Shown here in pieces: positions 1,700 to 5,660 of a stretch of DNA of 13,368 bases. How positions within the stretch are numbered: the stretch's first letter is position 1; every line of letters begins with the position of its first letter. Both the position numbers and the translations under genes were made by a program. This stretch comes from a virus (taxonomy: Monodnaviria > Loebvirae > Hofneiviricota > Faserviricetes > Tubulavirales > Inoviridae). The notes beneath the pieces are model-generated. The model worked only from the letters and a program-made list of their open reading frames with translations, did not search any database and had not been told where the DNA came from. The stretch lies in IMG/VR virus record IMGVR_UViG_2630968543_000001, one strand, 5' to 3'.

Positions 1700-1733
1700 A
1701 ATAAAGAACGTGCAGTGTTGGTAATACTGCACG
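1700..1733 (-). terminator. Hairpin with U tract downstream of repressor gene copy 1 (terminator and/or origin-associated structure)
   Basis: 8-bp perfect inverted repeat CGTGCAGT (1709-1716) / ACTGCACG (1726-1733) with a 9-nt loop. On the minus strand it is followed by UUCUUUAUU (complement of 1700-1708), about 30 nt after the repressor stop. The tandem-repeat boundary (1721) falls in the loop. Confidence 0.45.
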
Positions 1734-1763
1734 TTTGTCTCATTCCTGAGACTGTTAATCCTT

Positions 1764-2210
1764 TTACTCTTCTCCAGACACCGCTTTTTTCATAAACATT
1801 TTAGTACTGTAAGTGTATGAACTTAATGCAGAAACCTGCCTTGCGAGTGCCAGAATATCTTGTTTTTCCAGTGTCCTGATGTTCCACACGATGAAATTAT
1901 GTGCGTTAGTGGTTTCTTCATCAGTATATCCATCCGCAGAAGTGATTAGCTTCCGCTCGGTAGCTTCTTCTTTAACATCAAGAGCATAGCCATAAGCTAA
2001 GGTGTTTAAGTCTGCACCCGTAATTTTAGCTATCTGAATGATGTCACTGAATTTAGGTTCAGTTTTGCCGGACGCTATCCTGACCAGCGTACTCACGCTA
2101 ATGCCAGTCTTCTCGGCCAGTTCTTCATAAGTCGAGTGTTCCAGAATTACCTTTTTGATACGTTCTGCTCTCTGTTTGTCCGCCATAACTTCATGCTCAT
2201 TGTTGCCCAT
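1764..2210 (-). CDS. XRE-family (Cro/CI-type) helix-turn-helix transcriptional regulator, putative phage repressor (copy 1)
   Basis: ORF-track 148 aa. HTH-like segment around aa 27-47 (TYEELAEKTGISVSTLVRIASG). GGAG lies 8 nt upstream of the ATG on the minus strand. The gene is divergent from the replication gene, as with rstR/rstA of CTX-type phages. Confidence 0.75.
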   Translation of the reverse strand: MGNNEHEVMADKQRAERIKKVILEHSTYEELAEKTGISVSTLVRIASGKTEPKFSDIIQIAKITGADLNTLAYGYALDVKEEATERKLITSADGYTDEETTNAHNFIVWNIRTLEKQDILALARQVSALSSYTYSTKMFMKKAVSGEE

Positions 2211-2381
2211 CTACTTGGCTCCATCTTAACAGTGGTTTTTCAATAGTTAGATTTGATGCTCATTTCTGACAATTTAAACATTGCAAATGTATTGACTGTC
2301 AGATCTGAGCATATTACATTGTGACCATTCAATCTGCTCACAAATGACTATTGACACATATTTTGATGGGTGTGACTACTT
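2211..2381. promoter_or_regulatory. Divergent promoter/operator region between repressor and replication genes (copy 1)
   Basis: Plus-strand candidate sigma70 promoter TTGACT (2292-2297), 17-nt spacer, TACATT (2315-2320). Minus-strand candidate TTGTCA (complement of 2267-2272), 17-nt spacer, TAACTA (complement of 2244-2249). Repeated TGAC-core motifs include the palindrome TGACTGTCA (2293-2301), with inverted ATGCTCA (2256-2262) / TGAGCAT (2307-2313). Confidence 0.5.
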
Positions 2382-3434
2382 ATGATCGACTGGTTTACCG
2401 GAATCCTGCCTTGCACACACCGACCGTTACCGGCTGGTAGTGTCGTCAGCGTCGATGCTGACGGTGCAGTGGAGTGGGAAACAGTAAAACGGTTGACCGT
2501 TCGCGGTTCGCATGAGTCCACAATGAAAGTAAGGTCTGTTGGATCTGATGGTGAAGGTAGGGCAACACATCTCTACATTGACGGTAATCCATCAAAGTTT
2601 TTGCAAGGTCACTCTGTTATCGGTTCCGACGATTTGCAAGGGTTGGTGTTAACAGCTTACGCCAGAATATTGGCATTACTGCATATTCCTCATGATCTAC
2701 CATCCTATCGGCAGGTCATGGAAGGGCAATTTAAGATCTCGCGCATCGATATCAATTACATGTATTCATTGTCAACATTAGAAAATGTCCGCGCATGGTT
2801 ATATGCCGCAGAATTTAAAGCTAAAACTCGCCACGGTCGCGCCTGTGGTAAAGGTGGCACTGTTTACTTAGGGAAAAACTCCCGTCGTTGGAGCCTGAAA
2901 TTTTATTCAAAATATGATGAGCATACATCTGGCAAAAAAGGGCACCAGATGGCAGACGAATTCGTTAAAGCTGGTTTACTGGACTGGTCAAAAGATAAAT
3001 TACGCATTGAATTAACATTAAGAACAACTGAATTAATTGATTTGAATCTTACGCTTGGTAATAGCTGGAATATTGAGACGCCCAATAAATTATTCTCTGA
3101 CTATGTAGGGAGAATAGAAATGAATCAAAATACTATATTAACTGATGAAAAAATAATTAATCTCCCAAGAAAAATACAGTCTACATATTTATTGTGGAAG
3201 CAGGGCACGAACATGAAAGAGATGTTACCGAAACCTACATTCTACCGACACCGTAAAGAATTACTTTCTTTCGGAATAGATATTAACTTTTATTGTGAGT
3301 CACCGGATTCTAATAACGTTGTTCCGTTGGTTCGTACTCTTGAAGCCAAACCAGCCAAAATTCCATCATGGGTTTATGAGAAAGGTTTAATTTTCGATTA
3401 TAACCGTATTTCACATGCCAGTAACTGGCATTAA
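2382..3434 (+). CDS. Rolling-circle replication initiation protein (gpII/RstA-like), copy 1
   Basis: ORF-track 350 aa. It is the first gene divergent from the repressor. It contains a YSKYDE segment resembling the conserved Tyr-Asp-Lys-type motif I associate with the phage replication-initiator family; the size is typical. No strong SD; the start codon is uncertain. Confidence 0.65.
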   Translation: MIDWFTGILPCTHRPLPAGSVVSVDADGAVEWETVKRLTVRGSHESTMKVRSVGSDGEGRATHLYIDGNPSKFLQGHSVIGSDDLQGLVLTAYARILALLHIPHDLPSYRQVMEGQFKISRIDINYMYSLSTLENVRAWLYAAEFKAKTRHGRACGKGGTVYLGKNSRRWSLKFYSKYDEHTSGKKGHQMADEFVKAGLLDWSKDKLRIELTLRTTELIDLNLTLGNSWNIETPNKLFSDYVGRIEMNQNTILTDEKIINLPRKIQSTYLLWKQGTNMKEMLPKPTFYRHRKELLSFGIDINFYCESPDSNNVVPLVRTLEAKPAKIPSWVYEKGLIFDYNRISHASNWH

Positions 3435-3445
3435 AGGAGAGTGAT

Positions 3446-3763
3446 ATGTCTAATTATGGTCTTTTTGTAAAAGGTAAAATGCTTGGTGCTCGCCAGCGTA
3501 ATAAGGTCAATGGTCAGGGATACTATAATGAAATTGGTGTTGGCTTAGAGATTCCTGATGGTTTTGGCGGCACTAAGCAAGACCAGATTATTATTCGTGT
3601 ATCTCAGGCTCTTGTTAATGCCGGTGTAATGAATCAGGCAAATAATTTTATCGGTAAGTTAGTCCAGATACCTGTATATGTTCGCGTCTGGTCAATGGAG
3701 GGGAGGGAAGGAGTAACTTATAACATTTCATCAGATGGCGGCATTACTGAAATAAAAGGCTGA
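3446..3763 (+). CDS. Small protein in the position of the ssDNA-binding protein (gpV/RstB-like), copy 1
   Basis: ORF-track 105 aa. Strong SD AAAGGAG 6 nt upstream. It immediately follows the replication gene. The assignment is by position and size only. Confidence 0.45.
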   Translation: MSNYGLFVKGKMLGARQRNKVNGQGYYNEIGVGLEIPDGFGGTKQDQIIIRVSQALVNAGVMNQANNFIGKLVQIPVYVRVWSMEGREGVTYNISSDGGITEIKG

Positions 3764-4017: not shown

Positions 4018-4051
4018 ATGCGAACCTTTAAAATGTAATGGAGATAGAGTT

Positions 4052-4285
4052 ATGTTTAAAAAAATCGTTAGTTTTCTGGCTGTACCTGCATTAATGGCTG
4101 TTTCTGGCGCGACTTTCGCTGCAGAAGGAGCGGCATCAAGTGGTGTTGATTTATCGCCGCTGACGAACAGCATTGATTTCAGTACAGTTCTGGTTGCGAT
4201 TATGGCCGTTGCTGCTTCACTGGTAACACTTTATGCCGGTGTCGCTGGCGTTCGCTGGGTATTGCGTACCGTTAAATCCGCATAA
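4052..4285 (+). CDS. Major coat protein (gpVIII-like), copy 1
   Basis: ORF-track 77 aa. Signal peptide MFKKIVSFLAVPALMAVSGATFA followed by AEGA, then a hydrophobic core and a basic C-terminus RWVLRTVKSA. GGAG lies 9 nt upstream. A terminator follows. Confidence 0.8.
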   Translation: MFKKIVSFLAVPALMAVSGATFAAEGAASSGVDLSPLTNSIDFSTVLVAIMAVAASLVTLYAGVAGVRWVLRTVKSA

Positions 4286-4298
4286 ATTCATTATTCAT

Positions 4299-4326
4299 GG
4301 GCGATGCAATATCGCCCGTTTTACTT
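4299..4326 (+). terminator. Intrinsic terminator downstream of the major coat protein gene (copy 1)
   Basis: Stem GGGCGAT (4299-4305) / ATCGCCC (4311-4317), loop GCAAT, followed by GTTTTACTT. It starts 14 nt after the gpVIII-like stop. A terminator at the same position is known in Ff phages. Confidence 0.65.
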
Positions 4327-4349
4327 GAGGTTATTATGGAGATTGAATT

Positions 4350-5660
4350 ATGGAAATTGGGTTCCCTTTTATGGGGGATCGTCTCAGCTTATGTCGTTAT
4401 TCTTGGGCTAAGAGGCTGACGGTTTATTCCTTTATTTTTTCCTTTCTCTGGGTTTCCTTTCCCCGATATTCATATTCATTTGTACCAGCAATTGCAGCAG
4501 TGGCTGCGCGGGCTGTTATTCCTAAAGTCGTTGGCCGGGTGCTTGTTCGTCGCTTTGCTGCCAATGATGCGATTTATACGGCATCACAGCTTACAGCAAC
4601 CCGTGTTTTTGTTGGCCGCGCTGCGGCTAATGCTGCCGAATACTTGCCTGCTGCCTCATCATACAAAATGAGCGGTGTTGCAACGTGGGCGGGTATTGCT
4701 GCTGCTGTATCATCTTTTGTTCCGTCTTCTTTGAGTTCATCTGACGGCTCGGTAATGGTAATGACTAACGGTAAAAAGATTTCCGATAATTTATATGAAG
4801 TAACGTACAGTGGTCAAAGTGGTGAAAGTAAGACGATAACCGTTAATTTTGAACCACAGGAATTAAGTCCGGTAATCCTTCATGTTAGTCGTAATAATGT
4901 GGATGCGGGTTCTCCAGTTGTAGGTGTTGAAACAGGATATTCCACGCCAGATAATGCACTTTATTATTATCAGGATTCGAAAGAGCTAATTTATTACTAT
5001 GGTGATAATCCAACTGAAATTGCCAGAAATTATCTTAATGACTATAACTCGCGTACTTATACTGAAACACTAACAAATTTTGAACGCACTGTGACGAATA
5101 AAGTTGTCAACAGTAATGGAGATGTATCCTTTACTGAACAGAATTATAAGTTTACTTATCCTTCCTCATTTTATGAAATACCTGAGATTACACACTTGTA
5201 TAGCAACCCGGCCGCATCTTCATTTCCCGCAGGTATTCCCATGTATGAAAATGTAGCAGGGCTTCCCATGTATTACAGCGTTGCTTATTTAACAGCAGGC
5301 AAGCAATATCAGTATCACAACACGCCTTGTAAAACGACTAATCAGTCAAATGGTGGATATTCGACGATTTGCGCCGTTCCTGAAAAAGAGGATTACACCG
5401 CAAAAGATATTGATGAAAAGAGTGAGCTTACTATCTGGACCAATACCAAATATAAAGCCATGACGGAAGTACTGGAGGCCGGAAATATTGAGTCCATGAT
5501 TGATTATCTGGAGTATCTTGATAGTGTTAGTGTATCGCCAGCACTTCTTGCCGACATGATTAACGAGCTGTGGTCTGAAGCTGCCGTAATACTGCACGTT
5601 TGTCTCATTCCTGAGACTGTTAATCCTTTTACTCTTCTCCAGACACCGCTTTTTTCATAA
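4350..5660 (+). pseudogene. Truncated copy of the pIII-like adsorption protein gene, cut by the tandem-duplication junction
   Basis: The 436-aa translation is identical to the first 413 aa of the 570-aa ORF at 8215-9927, up to WSEAAV. It then reads 23 unrelated codons (ILHVCLIPETVNPFTLLQTPLFS) from the antisense of the repressor 3' region before stopping at 5658-5660. Confidence 0.7.

Follow-up and report, generated by a model that had tools for sequence, protein, structure and literature searches.

Genes and features of the prophage and its duplicated unit

The stretch of DNA analysed here, called the window throughout, is 13,368 nt long and is one complete dif-integrated filamentous prophage of E. 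coli, present as a solitary copy. As shown in Table 1, the phage genes are arranged between an attL/attP region and a conserved attR-adjacent region. The prophage was assigned to the CUS-1/YpfPhi family from its dif integration, its inverted XerCD sites and its core layout, with a replication module common to I2-2. The prophage sits at dif, an intact dif being restored at its 3' end, and its conserved core is accompanied by two attR-adjacent ORFs and variable attL-adjacent ORFs. The same core/variable layout and the occurrence in O18:K1:H7 ExPEC have been described for CUS-1/YpfPhi, and an inverted XerCD site pair has been described for YpfPhi (PMC4266046). The window itself ends 3 nt short of the chromosomal dif site. 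Matches to the prophage were also found in UTI89 and NU14, both of which we take to represent the O18:K1:H7 clone.

The attL region was read by comparing its sequence with the tandem junction and with attL of other genomes, and in related contigs the chromosomal hipA-side flank was found directly to its left. The inverted dif-like pair folds into a long (+) strand hairpin (21-110, -21.7 kcal/mol, z = -4.1). In other variants of the phage, an STM4504-family gene takes the place of the DUF6953 and nuclease genes. The strongest (+) strand hairpin of the phage, at the 3' end of gene IV, is a candidate packaging (morphogenetic) signal by analogy, since its position matches the annotated "morphogenetic signal" of I2-2, and the hairpins at 12906-12995 are a possible (-) origin. 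The usual, single-copy form of this phage is 9503 nt long, whereas the form with the duplication reaches 13.4 kb.

Table 1. Coordinates of the prophage features in the window (a slash marks a predicted break or joint)
Feature	Position	Strand	Remarks
attL / phage attP region	1-100	+	dif-like XerCD site 4-36 and inverted second dif-like site; outside unit
Variable attL-adjacent accessory genes	104-1664	-	outside unit
DUF6953 gene	104-370	-	
DpnII/MboI-like PD-(D/E)XK nuclease	381-1175	-	
140-aa membrane protein	1242-1664	-	
Intact (+) origin core (oriA)	1707-1753	+	hairpin 1707-1735, then second inverted repeat 1737-1752
Unit copy 1	1723-5587	+	3865 nt, counted from predicted nick; starts with right half of origin
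HTH repressor	1764-2210 (copy 1), 5629-6075 (copy 2)	-	
pII-type Rep	2382-3434 (copy 1), 6247-7299 (copy 2)		
G5P	3446-3763 (copy 1), 7311-7628 (copy 2)		
83-aa ORF	3766-4017 (copy 1)		second instance in copy 2
Major coat gene (gene VIII)	4052-4285 (copy 1)		second instance in copy 2
Truncated gene III fusion ORF	4350-5660		end of copy 1; 24 codons added from antisense origin/repressor sequence
Hybrid joint (oriB)	5580-5618	+	gene III ...GCTGCCGT / AATACTGCACGTTTGTCTCATTCCTGAGAC; origin positions -2 to +31 kept
Unit copy 2	5588-9452	+	identical to copy 1; continues into rest of intact gene III
Intact gene III	8215-9927 (ORF)		RefSeq start equivalent 8365; follows on from copy 2
Donor (pseudo-termination) site in intact gene III	9445-9459	+	GCTGCCGT/TAATGCC, break after 9452
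Assembly/secretion genes	9940-12500	+	single instance; outside unit
pVI-like DUF2523	9940-10227	+	
Zot/pI	10231-11256	+	
pIV secretin	11256-12500	+	
Strongest (+) strand hairpin of phage	12416-12505	+	overlaps 3' end of gene IV; -23.5 kcal/mol, z = -4.6
attR-adjacent conserved region	12589-13368	+	82-aa ORF, further hairpins, 65-aa ORF

An initial annotation of this DNA had proposed a duplicated unit at 1721-5585, and the duplication is real. Base-by-base comparison showed that 1721-5587 and 5586-9452 are identical over 3867 nt with 0 mismatches, which is far beyond chance. The period is 3865 nt, giving two head-to-tail copies of the unit and a 2-nt GT overlap. The repressor, Rep and G5P genes are contained in the unit as annotated, but the complete origin hairpin that had been listed with them is not, as the unit holds only its 3' half. 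It was also right that the unit is without intact pIII, pVI, pI and pIV genes, since gene III is truncated in copy 1 and the intact set follows only after copy 2. Rep is a full-length pII/Phage_CRI protein (PF05144, E = 1e-73, profile positions 1-231 of 232; second profile match PF05155, E = 5e-34) with 58% identity to I2-2 gene II.

These contents bear on the stronger form of the suggestion that the unit is RS1-like, in which it would be an evolved satellite that is discrete, selected, packaged by a helper, transmitted in virions and able to integrate on its own. The repressor, Rep and ssDNA-binding genes and the origin-side position do parallel RS1 (PMC8265649). However, every ORF in the unit is a copy of a phage gene and an element-specific (rstC-like) gene is absent, the truncated gene III fusion looks accidental, and both attP (1-100) and the best packaging candidate (12416-12505) lie outside the unit, which leaves the idea of a helper-packaged satellite unsupported. 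A Xer attachment site was likewise absent from the unit, the dif-like sites being confined to window positions 1-100.

Replication origin, predicted nick and hybrid joint

The left boundary of the repeat is located within the 3-nt loop of the origin hairpin, at the position equivalent to the Ff nick. The fold of this hairpin has a z of -6.5, and none of 200 shuffled sequences folded as well. A block near-identical to the boundary hairpin (GAACGTGCAGTGTWGGTAATACTGCACGTTTGTCTCA) is found in the I2-2 intergenic region, and the origin core is located upstream of gene II on the coding strand, as in Ff/I2-2-type modules. In 11 IMG/VR contigs and in all E. coli loci examined the origin block was invariant while both flanks diverged, and it is the most conserved non-coding element of the 9.5-kb genome. 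The M13 origin has a matching architecture, with a hairpin followed by a second inverted repeat, and the same AATA at +1. Analogy with Ff, together with the joints, leads us to predict the Rep nick between 1722 and 1723 (GGT/AATA in the window, compared with TTCTTT/AATA in Ff, where pII cuts before AATA; PMC4403547). The sequence recognised by Ff pII starts just 4 nt to the 5' side of the nick, and the 5' end is held covalently by Tyr-197 of pII (PMC5405960). The origin had been thought to lie inside the unit; it is found instead at the unit boundary, with the 5' arm (1707-1716) outside and only a hybrid origin in copy 2.

Since the repeat starts at the predicted nick, the second-copy origin is a hybrid, in which gene III sequence is joined to the right half of the origin. 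At this joint gene III sequence replaces the 5' hairpin arm and the origin hairpin cannot form. The hybrid joint may work poorly, because initiation and termination in Ff both require domain A, of which the left hairpin arm is a part (PMC5405960).

Three different joints were found at the same nucleotide (1722/1723). Their donors are gene VIII, in a metagenome contig with a 2419-nt unit, gene III, and gene IV, in Klebsiella spallanzanii. In an alignment of the joints, every position was invariant starting at GT/AATACTGC, and the sequences 5' of GT were unrelated. All three donors end in GT, a dinucleotide with a frequency of 0.06 (p about 2e-4). The two further joints came from a search in which the wild-type base at -3 was excluded and which was tied to 1722/1723 by design, so that it does not allow the conclusion that joints are rarer at other positions; deletions not anchored at the origin are present in at least one array copy. 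Similarity between donors and origin beyond GT was weak, with a non-significant local-alignment test. A match to the left arm of the origin is confined to the gene III donor (9/11 with AACGAGCTGTG, 16-26 nt upstream of the donor break), and a match as good occurs at 1.8% of GT sites in a post hoc test.

An ordinary tandem duplication, arising by unequal crossing-over or slippage and having its boundary in the origin hairpin by coincidence, is highly improbable. These prophages often show tandem arrays and other rearrangements, but coincidence would have to place the boundary in the 3-nt loop of the most conserved non-coding element, at the Ff-equivalent nick, and two other, different duplications or joints at that same nucleotide, with no homology between the two ends beyond GT. 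Repair at the nick is another alternative. A replication fork meeting the Rep nick would leave a one-ended break, and its repair on the sister chromosome through the 2-nt GT microhomology would yield a tandem duplication with one end set by the nick and the other at any position. This route explains why the left end is constant and why every one of the three joints has the GT overlap, which microhomology-mediated repair of a nick-derived break would leave equally well, and the donors otherwise resemble the origin little. Repair of nick-induced breaks is also a known route of rearrangement (PMC12095120). Against it, the identical gene III donor was used, among about 550 GT sites, in two lineages, each beside unduplicated relatives, which points to a preferred site with the 9/11 left-arm match, and the closed 3865-nt circles described below are the direct product expected of Rep cleavage and ligation. 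We regard the repair route as improbable.

Recurrence, closed circles and proposed mechanism

The junction was detected in at least 10 contigs, and the gene III joint is present in two phage lineages that are 12 SNPs apart. In the complete chromosome of STIN_95 there are three perfect units, linked by the gene III joint of the window, together with a different accessory gene; a difference of 1 SNP separates its unit from unduplicated NC101-type phages. The unit of the window is 3 SNPs from the unduplicated phages of MINF_1D/GN02323, and another complete chromosome (OZ039018.1) has three units identical to it. Arrays are rare among the approximately 100 phage-bearing complete genomes, and copies within arrays are 100% identical.

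The initial annotation had predicted that a 3865-nt circle would be released if the origin lay within the unit. Closed cycles of this size were found, with the origin at the unit boundary. Three public metagenome assemblies contain closed cycles of exactly 3865 nt (contigs of 3920, 3920 and 3895 nt with terminal overlaps of 55, 55 and 30 nt, respectively) in which the joint is present and the intact origin absent, leaving the hybrid joint as the sole origin sequence. A fourth stand-alone contig is near-complete and wraps the joint. All four carry a private SNP, 3865 T>A, that was absent from every chromosomal array examined. One of the closed-cycle contigs has a coverage of only 6.5x, and such contigs can stem from a tandem array whose flanks fall below assembly thresholds; the cycles may be free replicating circles.

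The private SNP, as if the circles formed their own lineage, and the finding of the junction in at least 10 contigs could be taken to favour the RS1-type satellite. The right end, however, is not fixed and lies in gene VIII, III or IV depending on the record, and the identity of array copies together with the rarity of arrays does not suit a discrete, evolved element. Taken with the gene content, this makes such a satellite quite improbable.

The window itself is likely to come from short-read assembly, in which a two-unit path is the minimal way of placing the joint; the cell could in fact have contained at least three chromosomal units, or a single prophage accompanied by a free circle. The second copy may be not chromosomal at all, a short-read assembler having threaded one prophage together with free 3865-nt circles. 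The 100% identity of the copies agrees with this, as do the related two-unit records, which are short-read-style contigs with about 350-450 nt of chromosome per side, and the free-standing closed cycles in other samples. Given the three units carried by each of the STIN_95 and OZ039018.1 chromosomes, we consider threading unlikely; it would also change only the place of the second copy and not the nature of the unit, and would itself confirm the circle.

The evidence is best accommodated if the 3865-nt segment from the (+) origin nick to gene III was amplified head to tail through a joint made by Rep, a reading to which we give a probability of about 0.7. The unit looks like a sporadic Rep-generated mini-replicon, a recurrent by-product of faulty rolling-circle replication. 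In this mechanism, the pII-type Rep would nick the loop of the origin hairpin at GGT/AATA (1722/1723), and rolling-circle synthesis from the nick would displace the (+) strand. Rep would then cleave the secondary site in gene III (GCTGCCGT/TAAT, after 9452), either in place of the true origin or once synthesis had passed through it, and join the gene III 3' end to the 5' end held at +1. The product could be a 3865-nt circle that returns to the prophage by homologous recombination, or a 13.4-kb genome that carries the duplication and integrates at dif; either route would give the order attL, accessory genes, intact origin, unit, hybrid joint, full remainder and dif. We infer nicking by Rep at 1722/1723, formation of the joint by Rep and not by a repair pathway, and firing and termination at the hybrid joint from comparative data.

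Once an array had formed, Rep acting at two directly repeated nick sites could release the unit again as a circle with the repressor, Rep, G5P and coat genes, and without attP, the candidate packaging signal and the assembly genes. It is known that pII circularises the DNA between two direct origins (PMC4403547) and that in CTX, with RstA, a circle is released from the DNA that two directly repeated nick sites enclose (PMC8265649); by analogy, the CTX two-nick-site release rule applies to this unit. That the circle has become a free self-replicating plasmid-like element, firing and terminating from the hybrid joint alone as a lineage of its own, is a tentative possibility. If true, it would be a natural, caught-in-the-act conversion of an inovirus replication module to a rolling-circle plasmid, produced when Rep cut a preferred pseudo-site within gene III.

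The mechanism belongs to a known kind, and the natural variant appears not to have been described before. Comparative data alone place the (+) origin and the probable Rep nick of the CUS-1/YpfPhi/I2-2 module to the nucleotide, and a prior description of origin or nick mapping for this module was not found in the literature accessible to us. Aberrant termination anchored at the origin has been known from Ff miniphages in the laboratory and from engineered constructs with two origins; it would extend to natural E. coli and Klebsiella prophages, where it would yield the arrays and closed circles seen in public data. By the CTX rule, rolling-circle replication cannot free the genome of a solitary dif prophage, but such a prophage could still shed a small replicon with repressor and Rep, which bears on immunity dosage, cheater dynamics and the routes from phage module to plasmid. 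For annotation, partial tandem units of 100% identity in inovirus prophages should be read as origin-to-pseudo-origin products, and 3.9-kb "plasmid-like" contigs likewise.

Comparison with known filamentous phage systems

In the classical Vibrio cholerae strains O395/569B, a truncated CTXPhi copy with rstR, rstA, rstB and partial cep, which correspond to the repressor, Rep, the ssDNA-binding gene and part of a downstream structural gene, directly precedes an intact dif-integrated prophage, the same architecture as here (PMC8265649). The metagenome variant with the gene VIII donor also ends in the major coat gene, like the truncated CTXPhi copy. The present case concerns another phage family and host, the joint is placed at the predicted nick to the nucleotide, and the unit occurs in two or three copies and also as a closed circle.

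The unit resembles RS1 in being a regulation and replication module with rolling-circle nick sites directly repeated at both ends. Whereas the ends of RS1 are fixed and the element is packaged and can integrate on its own, the unit has variable right ends, no gene of its own, no attP and no candidate packaging signal. The own gene of RS1 is rstC, and by the two-nick-site rule the order RS1-then-prophage yields only the small circle (PMC8265649).

The miniphages and defective interfering genomes of Ff (f1/M13) and Pf are likewise shortened derivatives of filamentous phages. Classical Ff miniphages keep the whole intergenic region, including the packaging signal and both origins, lose gene II, and need a helper for replication. 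In contrast, the unit described here keeps an intact Rep and the repressor, appears to lose the packaging signal, as judged from the positional equivalent in I2-2, and is fixed as a chromosomal array in natural isolates. In f1 defective interfering genomes and M13 chimeras, deletion and duplication endpoints reportedly fall at the pII nick, in work attributed to Horiuchi (1983) and to Michel and Ehrlich (1986). The unit shares this predicted endpoint. Miniphages and defective interfering genomes arise repeatedly from filamentous phage and out-replicate the parent (PMC11996451).

The two-origin Ff constructs (Specthrie et al. 1992; Ff-nano) are also comparable, in that replication and circularisation act on the DNA lying between two directly repeated cut sites of pII, and either origin of the pair may be a truncated one (PMC4403547). 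Those constructs were designed, with the packaging signal between the origins and the truncated origin serving as a terminator only. Unlike them, the truncated element of the present prophage retains the initiation side.

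The prophage and its duplicated unit

In a comparison with complete E. coli genomes, about 88 matched 80% or more of the window. The 13,368 nt of the window corresponded in the best matches to about 9,503 nt of chromosome, indicating that the ordinary phage has the duplicated unit only once. In two genomes a perfect E. coli dif site was found 3-4 nt past the point where the window match stops. At the window start lies a dif-like site, GGTGCGCATAA-TGTACGACTCG-TTATGTTGAAA, which together with an inverted second site makes up one of the two strongest (+) strand hairpins. In related contigs the left flank was directly the hipA-side chromosome and the right flank was the true dif. 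From these end sites and flanks, the window is a single complete, solitary, dif-integrated filamentous prophage. The tRNA scan of the window detected none. The phage collection gave no match by megablast with the window, and relatives came only from the Rep protein search.

Several features of the phage agree with the published description of CUS-1/YpfPhi (PMC4266046): the core is conserved, two ORFs adjoin attR, the accessory ORFs next to attL are variable, the XerCD sites form an inverted pair, and many hosts have whole-genome tandems of 2-4 copies. The variable attL-adjacent slot (104-1175) encodes a DpnII/MboI-like PD-(D/E)XK nuclease and a DUF6953 protein, and the same slot in other variants (10793-11722 of record L003) encodes an STM4504/CBY_0614 family protein; these genes are possible defence or exclusion cargo. 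A 20-nt stretch at the start of gene VIII (4059-4078 and 7924-7943) recurs with 85% identity at 12876-12895 in the attR-adjacent non-coding region, where it is part of a small inverted repeat; this resemblance is probably due to chance.

Among the complete E. coli genomes the phage was found in UTI89 and NU14, which are members of the O18:K1:H7 clone. A 9,565-bp circular E. coli "untypable plasmid" (NZ_CP128883.1) is a complete variant of the window phage with an intact origin, probably its replicative form caught in a genome assembly. The same phage, at 99.9% identity, was also found at 65959-75462 of a 248-kb Klebsiella pneumoniae plasmid (NZ_CP132684.1), a record with two matching places, which suggests that the phage integrated at a plasmid Xer site and moved between genera.

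Positions 1721-5587 and 5586-9452 of the window have the same sequence at all 3867 nt, offset by 3865 nt; the two head-to-tail 3865-nt units thus have a 2-nt GT in common at their joint. The initial annotation had described a duplicated unit with the repressor, the replication initiator and a gpV-like gene and without intact pIII, pVI, pI and pIV genes, and this description holds: the former are present in both copies of the exact repeat, and only copy 2 runs on into an intact gene III, a pVI-like gene, Zot/pI and a pIV secretin.

Genes of the repeated unit and sites discussed in the text
Feature	Position	Copy	Strand	Remark
HTH repressor		each copy	minus	
pII-type replication initiator (Rep)		each copy	plus	PF05144 and PF05155, full lengths
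G5P single-strand-binding protein		each copy	plus	
83-aa membrane protein		each copy	plus	
Major coat protein		each copy	plus	
Gene III fusion ORF	4350-5660	copy 1		open, 436 aa
(+) origin core, predicted	1707-1753			
Rep nick, predicted	between 1722 and 1723			
Folded attP	1-100			outside unit
Strongest (+) strand hairpin of the phage	12416-12505		plus	outside unit; z = -4.6; overlaps gene IV 3' end
Hairpins, candidate (-) origin	12906-12995			outside unit

Gene III of copy 1 is cut off after 412 codons of a long ORF and continues with 24 antisense origin/repressor codons. The resulting fusion ORF retains about three quarters of the adsorption protein, from the N-terminus on, but not its C-terminal anchor; no database record was found for its 386-aa form. 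In Ff, N-terminal pIII fragments made in cells block superinfection, and by analogy the fusion protein might contribute to superinfection exclusion.

The predicted nick and the joints formed there

The closest sequenced phage Rep was gene II of I2-2, with 58% identity. The intergenic region of I2-2 has GAACGTGCAGTGTATGTAATACTGCAACGTTTGTCTCA, and its counterpart in the window is GAACGTGCAGTGTTGGTAATACTGCACGTTTGTCTCA at 1706-1742. The block AACGTGCAGTGTWGGTAATACTGCACGTTTGTCTCATTCCTGAGACT did not vary among 11 IMG/VR contigs or in any E. coli locus examined, and both of its flanks differed among phage variants. The predicted fold of the origin block has a 10-13 bp hairpin and, after it, a second inverted repeat of 6 bp; its z was -6.5, and 0 of 200 shuffled sequences folded as well. 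The layout of the M13 origin, GAGTCCAC-GTTCTTTAATA-GTGGACTC-TTGTTCCAAACTGGAACAA, is identical. Ff pII cuts at TTCTTT/AATA (PMC4403547), for which the window counterpart is GGT/AATA. On the basis of this conservation and the M13/Ff analogy, we infer the origin core and the Rep nick listed in the table. Natural origins differed at positions -3 and -4 (TTGGT and TAGGT, and TATGT in I2-2), never at -2 and -1. The assignment of the origin of this replication module at the nucleotide level is one main value of the finding.

The start of the repeat coincides exactly with the predicted nick, allowing for the 2-nt ambiguity. At the internal joint, gene III sequence ending in …GCTGCCGT abuts AATACTGCACGTTTGTCTCA…, and origin positions -2 to +31 are retained. 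Since gene III sequence replaces the 5' hairpin arm, this hybrid joint cannot form the origin hairpin. The earlier proposal that the unit carries the origin hairpin was therefore correct for the right half, which lies within the unit, but not for the 5' arm, which lies outside, so that the origin is not internal to it.

Public collections were scanned for right origin halves in which the base at -3 was not the wild-type G. Two more records were recovered, and their joints, different from each other and from that of the window, lie at the same nucleotide. In a 12.9-kb metagenome contig, gene VIII sequence …GCATCAAGT abuts AATACTG… and bounds a 2,419-nt tandem unit of the same overall architecture. 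In a Klebsiella spallanzanii genome, gene IV sequence …AAAGTCCCGT abuts AATACTG… within a multiply rearranged defective element. When intact origins and joints were aligned, all were invariant from GT/AATACTGC on, and the joints were unrelated directly 5' of GT. All three donors, the phage sequences joined to the origin, end in GT (p ~2e-4 at a GT frequency of 0.06). Three rearrangements breaking at one loop nucleotide of the most conserved non-coding element is a non-chance pattern; as the scan was anchored at this nucleotide by design, it does not bear on how rare breakpoints elsewhere are. In IMG/VR no exact junction and no non-wild-type joint was found, all 11 origins found there being wild type, and the gene VIII and gene IV joints were absent from complete E. 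coli genomes.

On the minus strand of the Klebsiella record (L005, strain SB6411, 8000-4436), the order is a gene III fragment, 38 nt of gene IV, the right half of the origin, a different repressor allele, gII to gVIII, gene IV from about 11407 and the attR end, and a contig end lies 138 nt upstream. The gene IV breakpoints are 18 nt apart, resembling an origin-to-gVIII segment inserted into gene IV. A clean insertion of an origin-anchored segment was rejected for this locus, which is multiply rearranged and cut by the contig end; it was counted only as an independent joint.

Likeness between donors and the origin was not significant by local alignment scores. For the gene III donor, 9 of 11 nt match the left arm of the origin at a place 16-26 nt upstream; only 1.8% of the GT sites of the phage are as good in a post hoc comparison, and the gene VIII and gene IV donors have no such match; mimicry of the origin by the gene III donor is thus suggestive at most. 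None of the joints lies at a dif-like site, and a role of XerCD in the duplication was therefore rejected.

No further partial units were found in multi-copy E. coli arrays, the four arrays examined being whole-genome tandems with wild-type origins. In E. coli FDAARGOS_1251 (L022, 24234-24336), the dif-proximal array copy has two internal deletions that are not origin-anchored (window positions gIII 9821 to gI 10903, and 11003 to 12528), indicating that defective copies also arise by other routes. All three whole-genome tandem copies of E. coli CUVET21-PYO5 (L020) share an internal stop in Rep, annotated as a pseudogene, so this array was homogenised or amplified after Rep inactivation.

Recurrence of the gene III joint and contigs that close to 3,865 nt

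The gene III joint was present in only one of 5,426 complete E. coli genomes, that of STIN_95, where three perfect units occur; the phage variant concerned has another accessory gene, and its unit differs from that of the window by 12 SNPs. Exact matching of the fusion protein specific to the junction recovered ten further contigs. One is the complete chromosome OZ039018.1, whose three units are the same as those of the window; an isolate contig and two metagenome scaffolds among them have two units apiece. In OZ039018.1, an IS3-family transposase pair separates hipA from the prophage attL (locus positions 4026-5239).

The SNP table resolved two groups 11-12 SNPs apart. The window group lies 3 SNPs from phages without the duplication in MINF_1D and GN02323, and STIN_95 lies 1 SNP from unduplicated NC101-type phages. 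Within every array the copies were identical. The most economical reading of these sequences is that the gene III joint arose at least twice, which would imply a preferred donor site. A conversion tract shorter than 300 nt that moved the junction between lineages, or several losses of the duplication, would be less economical alternatives.

Three of the contigs recovered with the fusion protein stand alone. In two of them, 3,920-nt metagenome contigs from ENA, the first and last 55 nt are identical; the third, a Logan contig of 3,895 nt, overlaps itself by 30 nt at its ends. Closure gives exactly 3,865 nt in every case, with the joint present and the intact origin absent. These lengths are those expected of a 3,865-nt cycle assembled at k = 55 or k = 31 without branches to flanks. 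The search for a 3865-nt circle suggested in the initial annotation is thus positive, in silico, for a closed 3,865-nt unit. A fourth contig (3,538 nt) wraps the joint, with both ends inside Rep. All four (L027-L030) carry a private T>A at window position 3865 (C34S in the 83-aa membrane protein), and two of them have 2454 G>A in common; both SNPs were absent from the chromosomal arrays examined. L027 and L029, which are of one haplotype, may derive from a single sample. The closed contigs are not proof of a free circle, since an array with flanks below threshold gives the same contig, and the coverage of one was only 6.5x. The public samples that contain them allow a direct test of the circle.

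Proposed mechanism and comparison with known systems

The recognition sequence of Ff pII begins only 4 nt 5' of the nick, and the protein remains covalently bound to the 5' end via Tyr-197 (PMC5405960). DNA between two directly repeated Ff origins is replicated and circularised (PMC4403547), and for CTXPhi two Ig-1 nick sites and RstA are necessary and sufficient for circularisation (PMC8265649). We propose that Rep, having nicked at the predicted site, would occasionally cut the displaced strand after GT at a secondary site and join it to the 5' end that it holds. Cleavage within the first 3,865 nt would give a mini-circle, which homologous recombination could return to the prophage, and cleavage after read-through of the origin would give a 13.4-kb genome integrating at dif. 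Either route would yield the observed order.

The main rival is that the Rep nick turns into a break and that host repair makes the joint via GT microhomology. Such repair would account for the anchoring and the GT overlap, but it does not easily explain one donor used in two lineages, or the circles. The hybrid joints (CCGT and AAGT) may still be nicked, because natural origins vary at -3 and -4 and never at -2 and -1. If the stand-alone cycles are free replicons, the hybrid joint must terminate as well; the Ff analogy argues against this, as domain A, left arm included, is required for initiation and termination (PMC5405960).

The initial annotation likened the unit to an RS1-like mini-replicon, analogous to satellite or miniphage elements that need a helper for packaging. 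Its core, a mini-replicon bounded by origin sequences, is upheld by the closed 3,865-nt unit. Satellite-type packaging is unsupported: the candidate packaging hairpin, at the position of the annotated morphogenetic signal of the I2-2 record, lies outside the unit. Because attP and the hairpins listed in the table fall outside it, a 3,865-nt circle would, on present evidence, have immunity and replication functions but no Xer integration and no obvious packaging signal. RS1 integrates and is packaged independently. It is also a discrete element with its own gene (PMC8265649), whereas the unit contains no gene that the phage lacks; the unit thus differs from RS1 in gene content and integration and probably in packaging, and an evolved RS1-like element is not supported. 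RS1 is nevertheless a good functional analogy, since the RS1-then-prophage order releases the small circle only (PMC8265649).

The closest architecture to the window is that of classical V. cholerae, in which a truncated CTXPhi copy (rstR, rstA, rstB and partial cep) lies ahead of an intact prophage (PMC8265649). No report of partial origin-anchored units was found in the searchable CUS-1/YpfPhi or UPphi literature. Horiuchi (1983) reportedly described f1 DI genomes, and Michel and Ehrlich (1986) M13 chimeras, with endpoints at the pII nick. Ff and Pf miniphages (PMC11996451) represent the same kind of event as the window unit. Classical Ff miniphages keep the packaging signal and lose gene II, while the window unit is the reverse, with the Rep gene kept and no obvious packaging signal.
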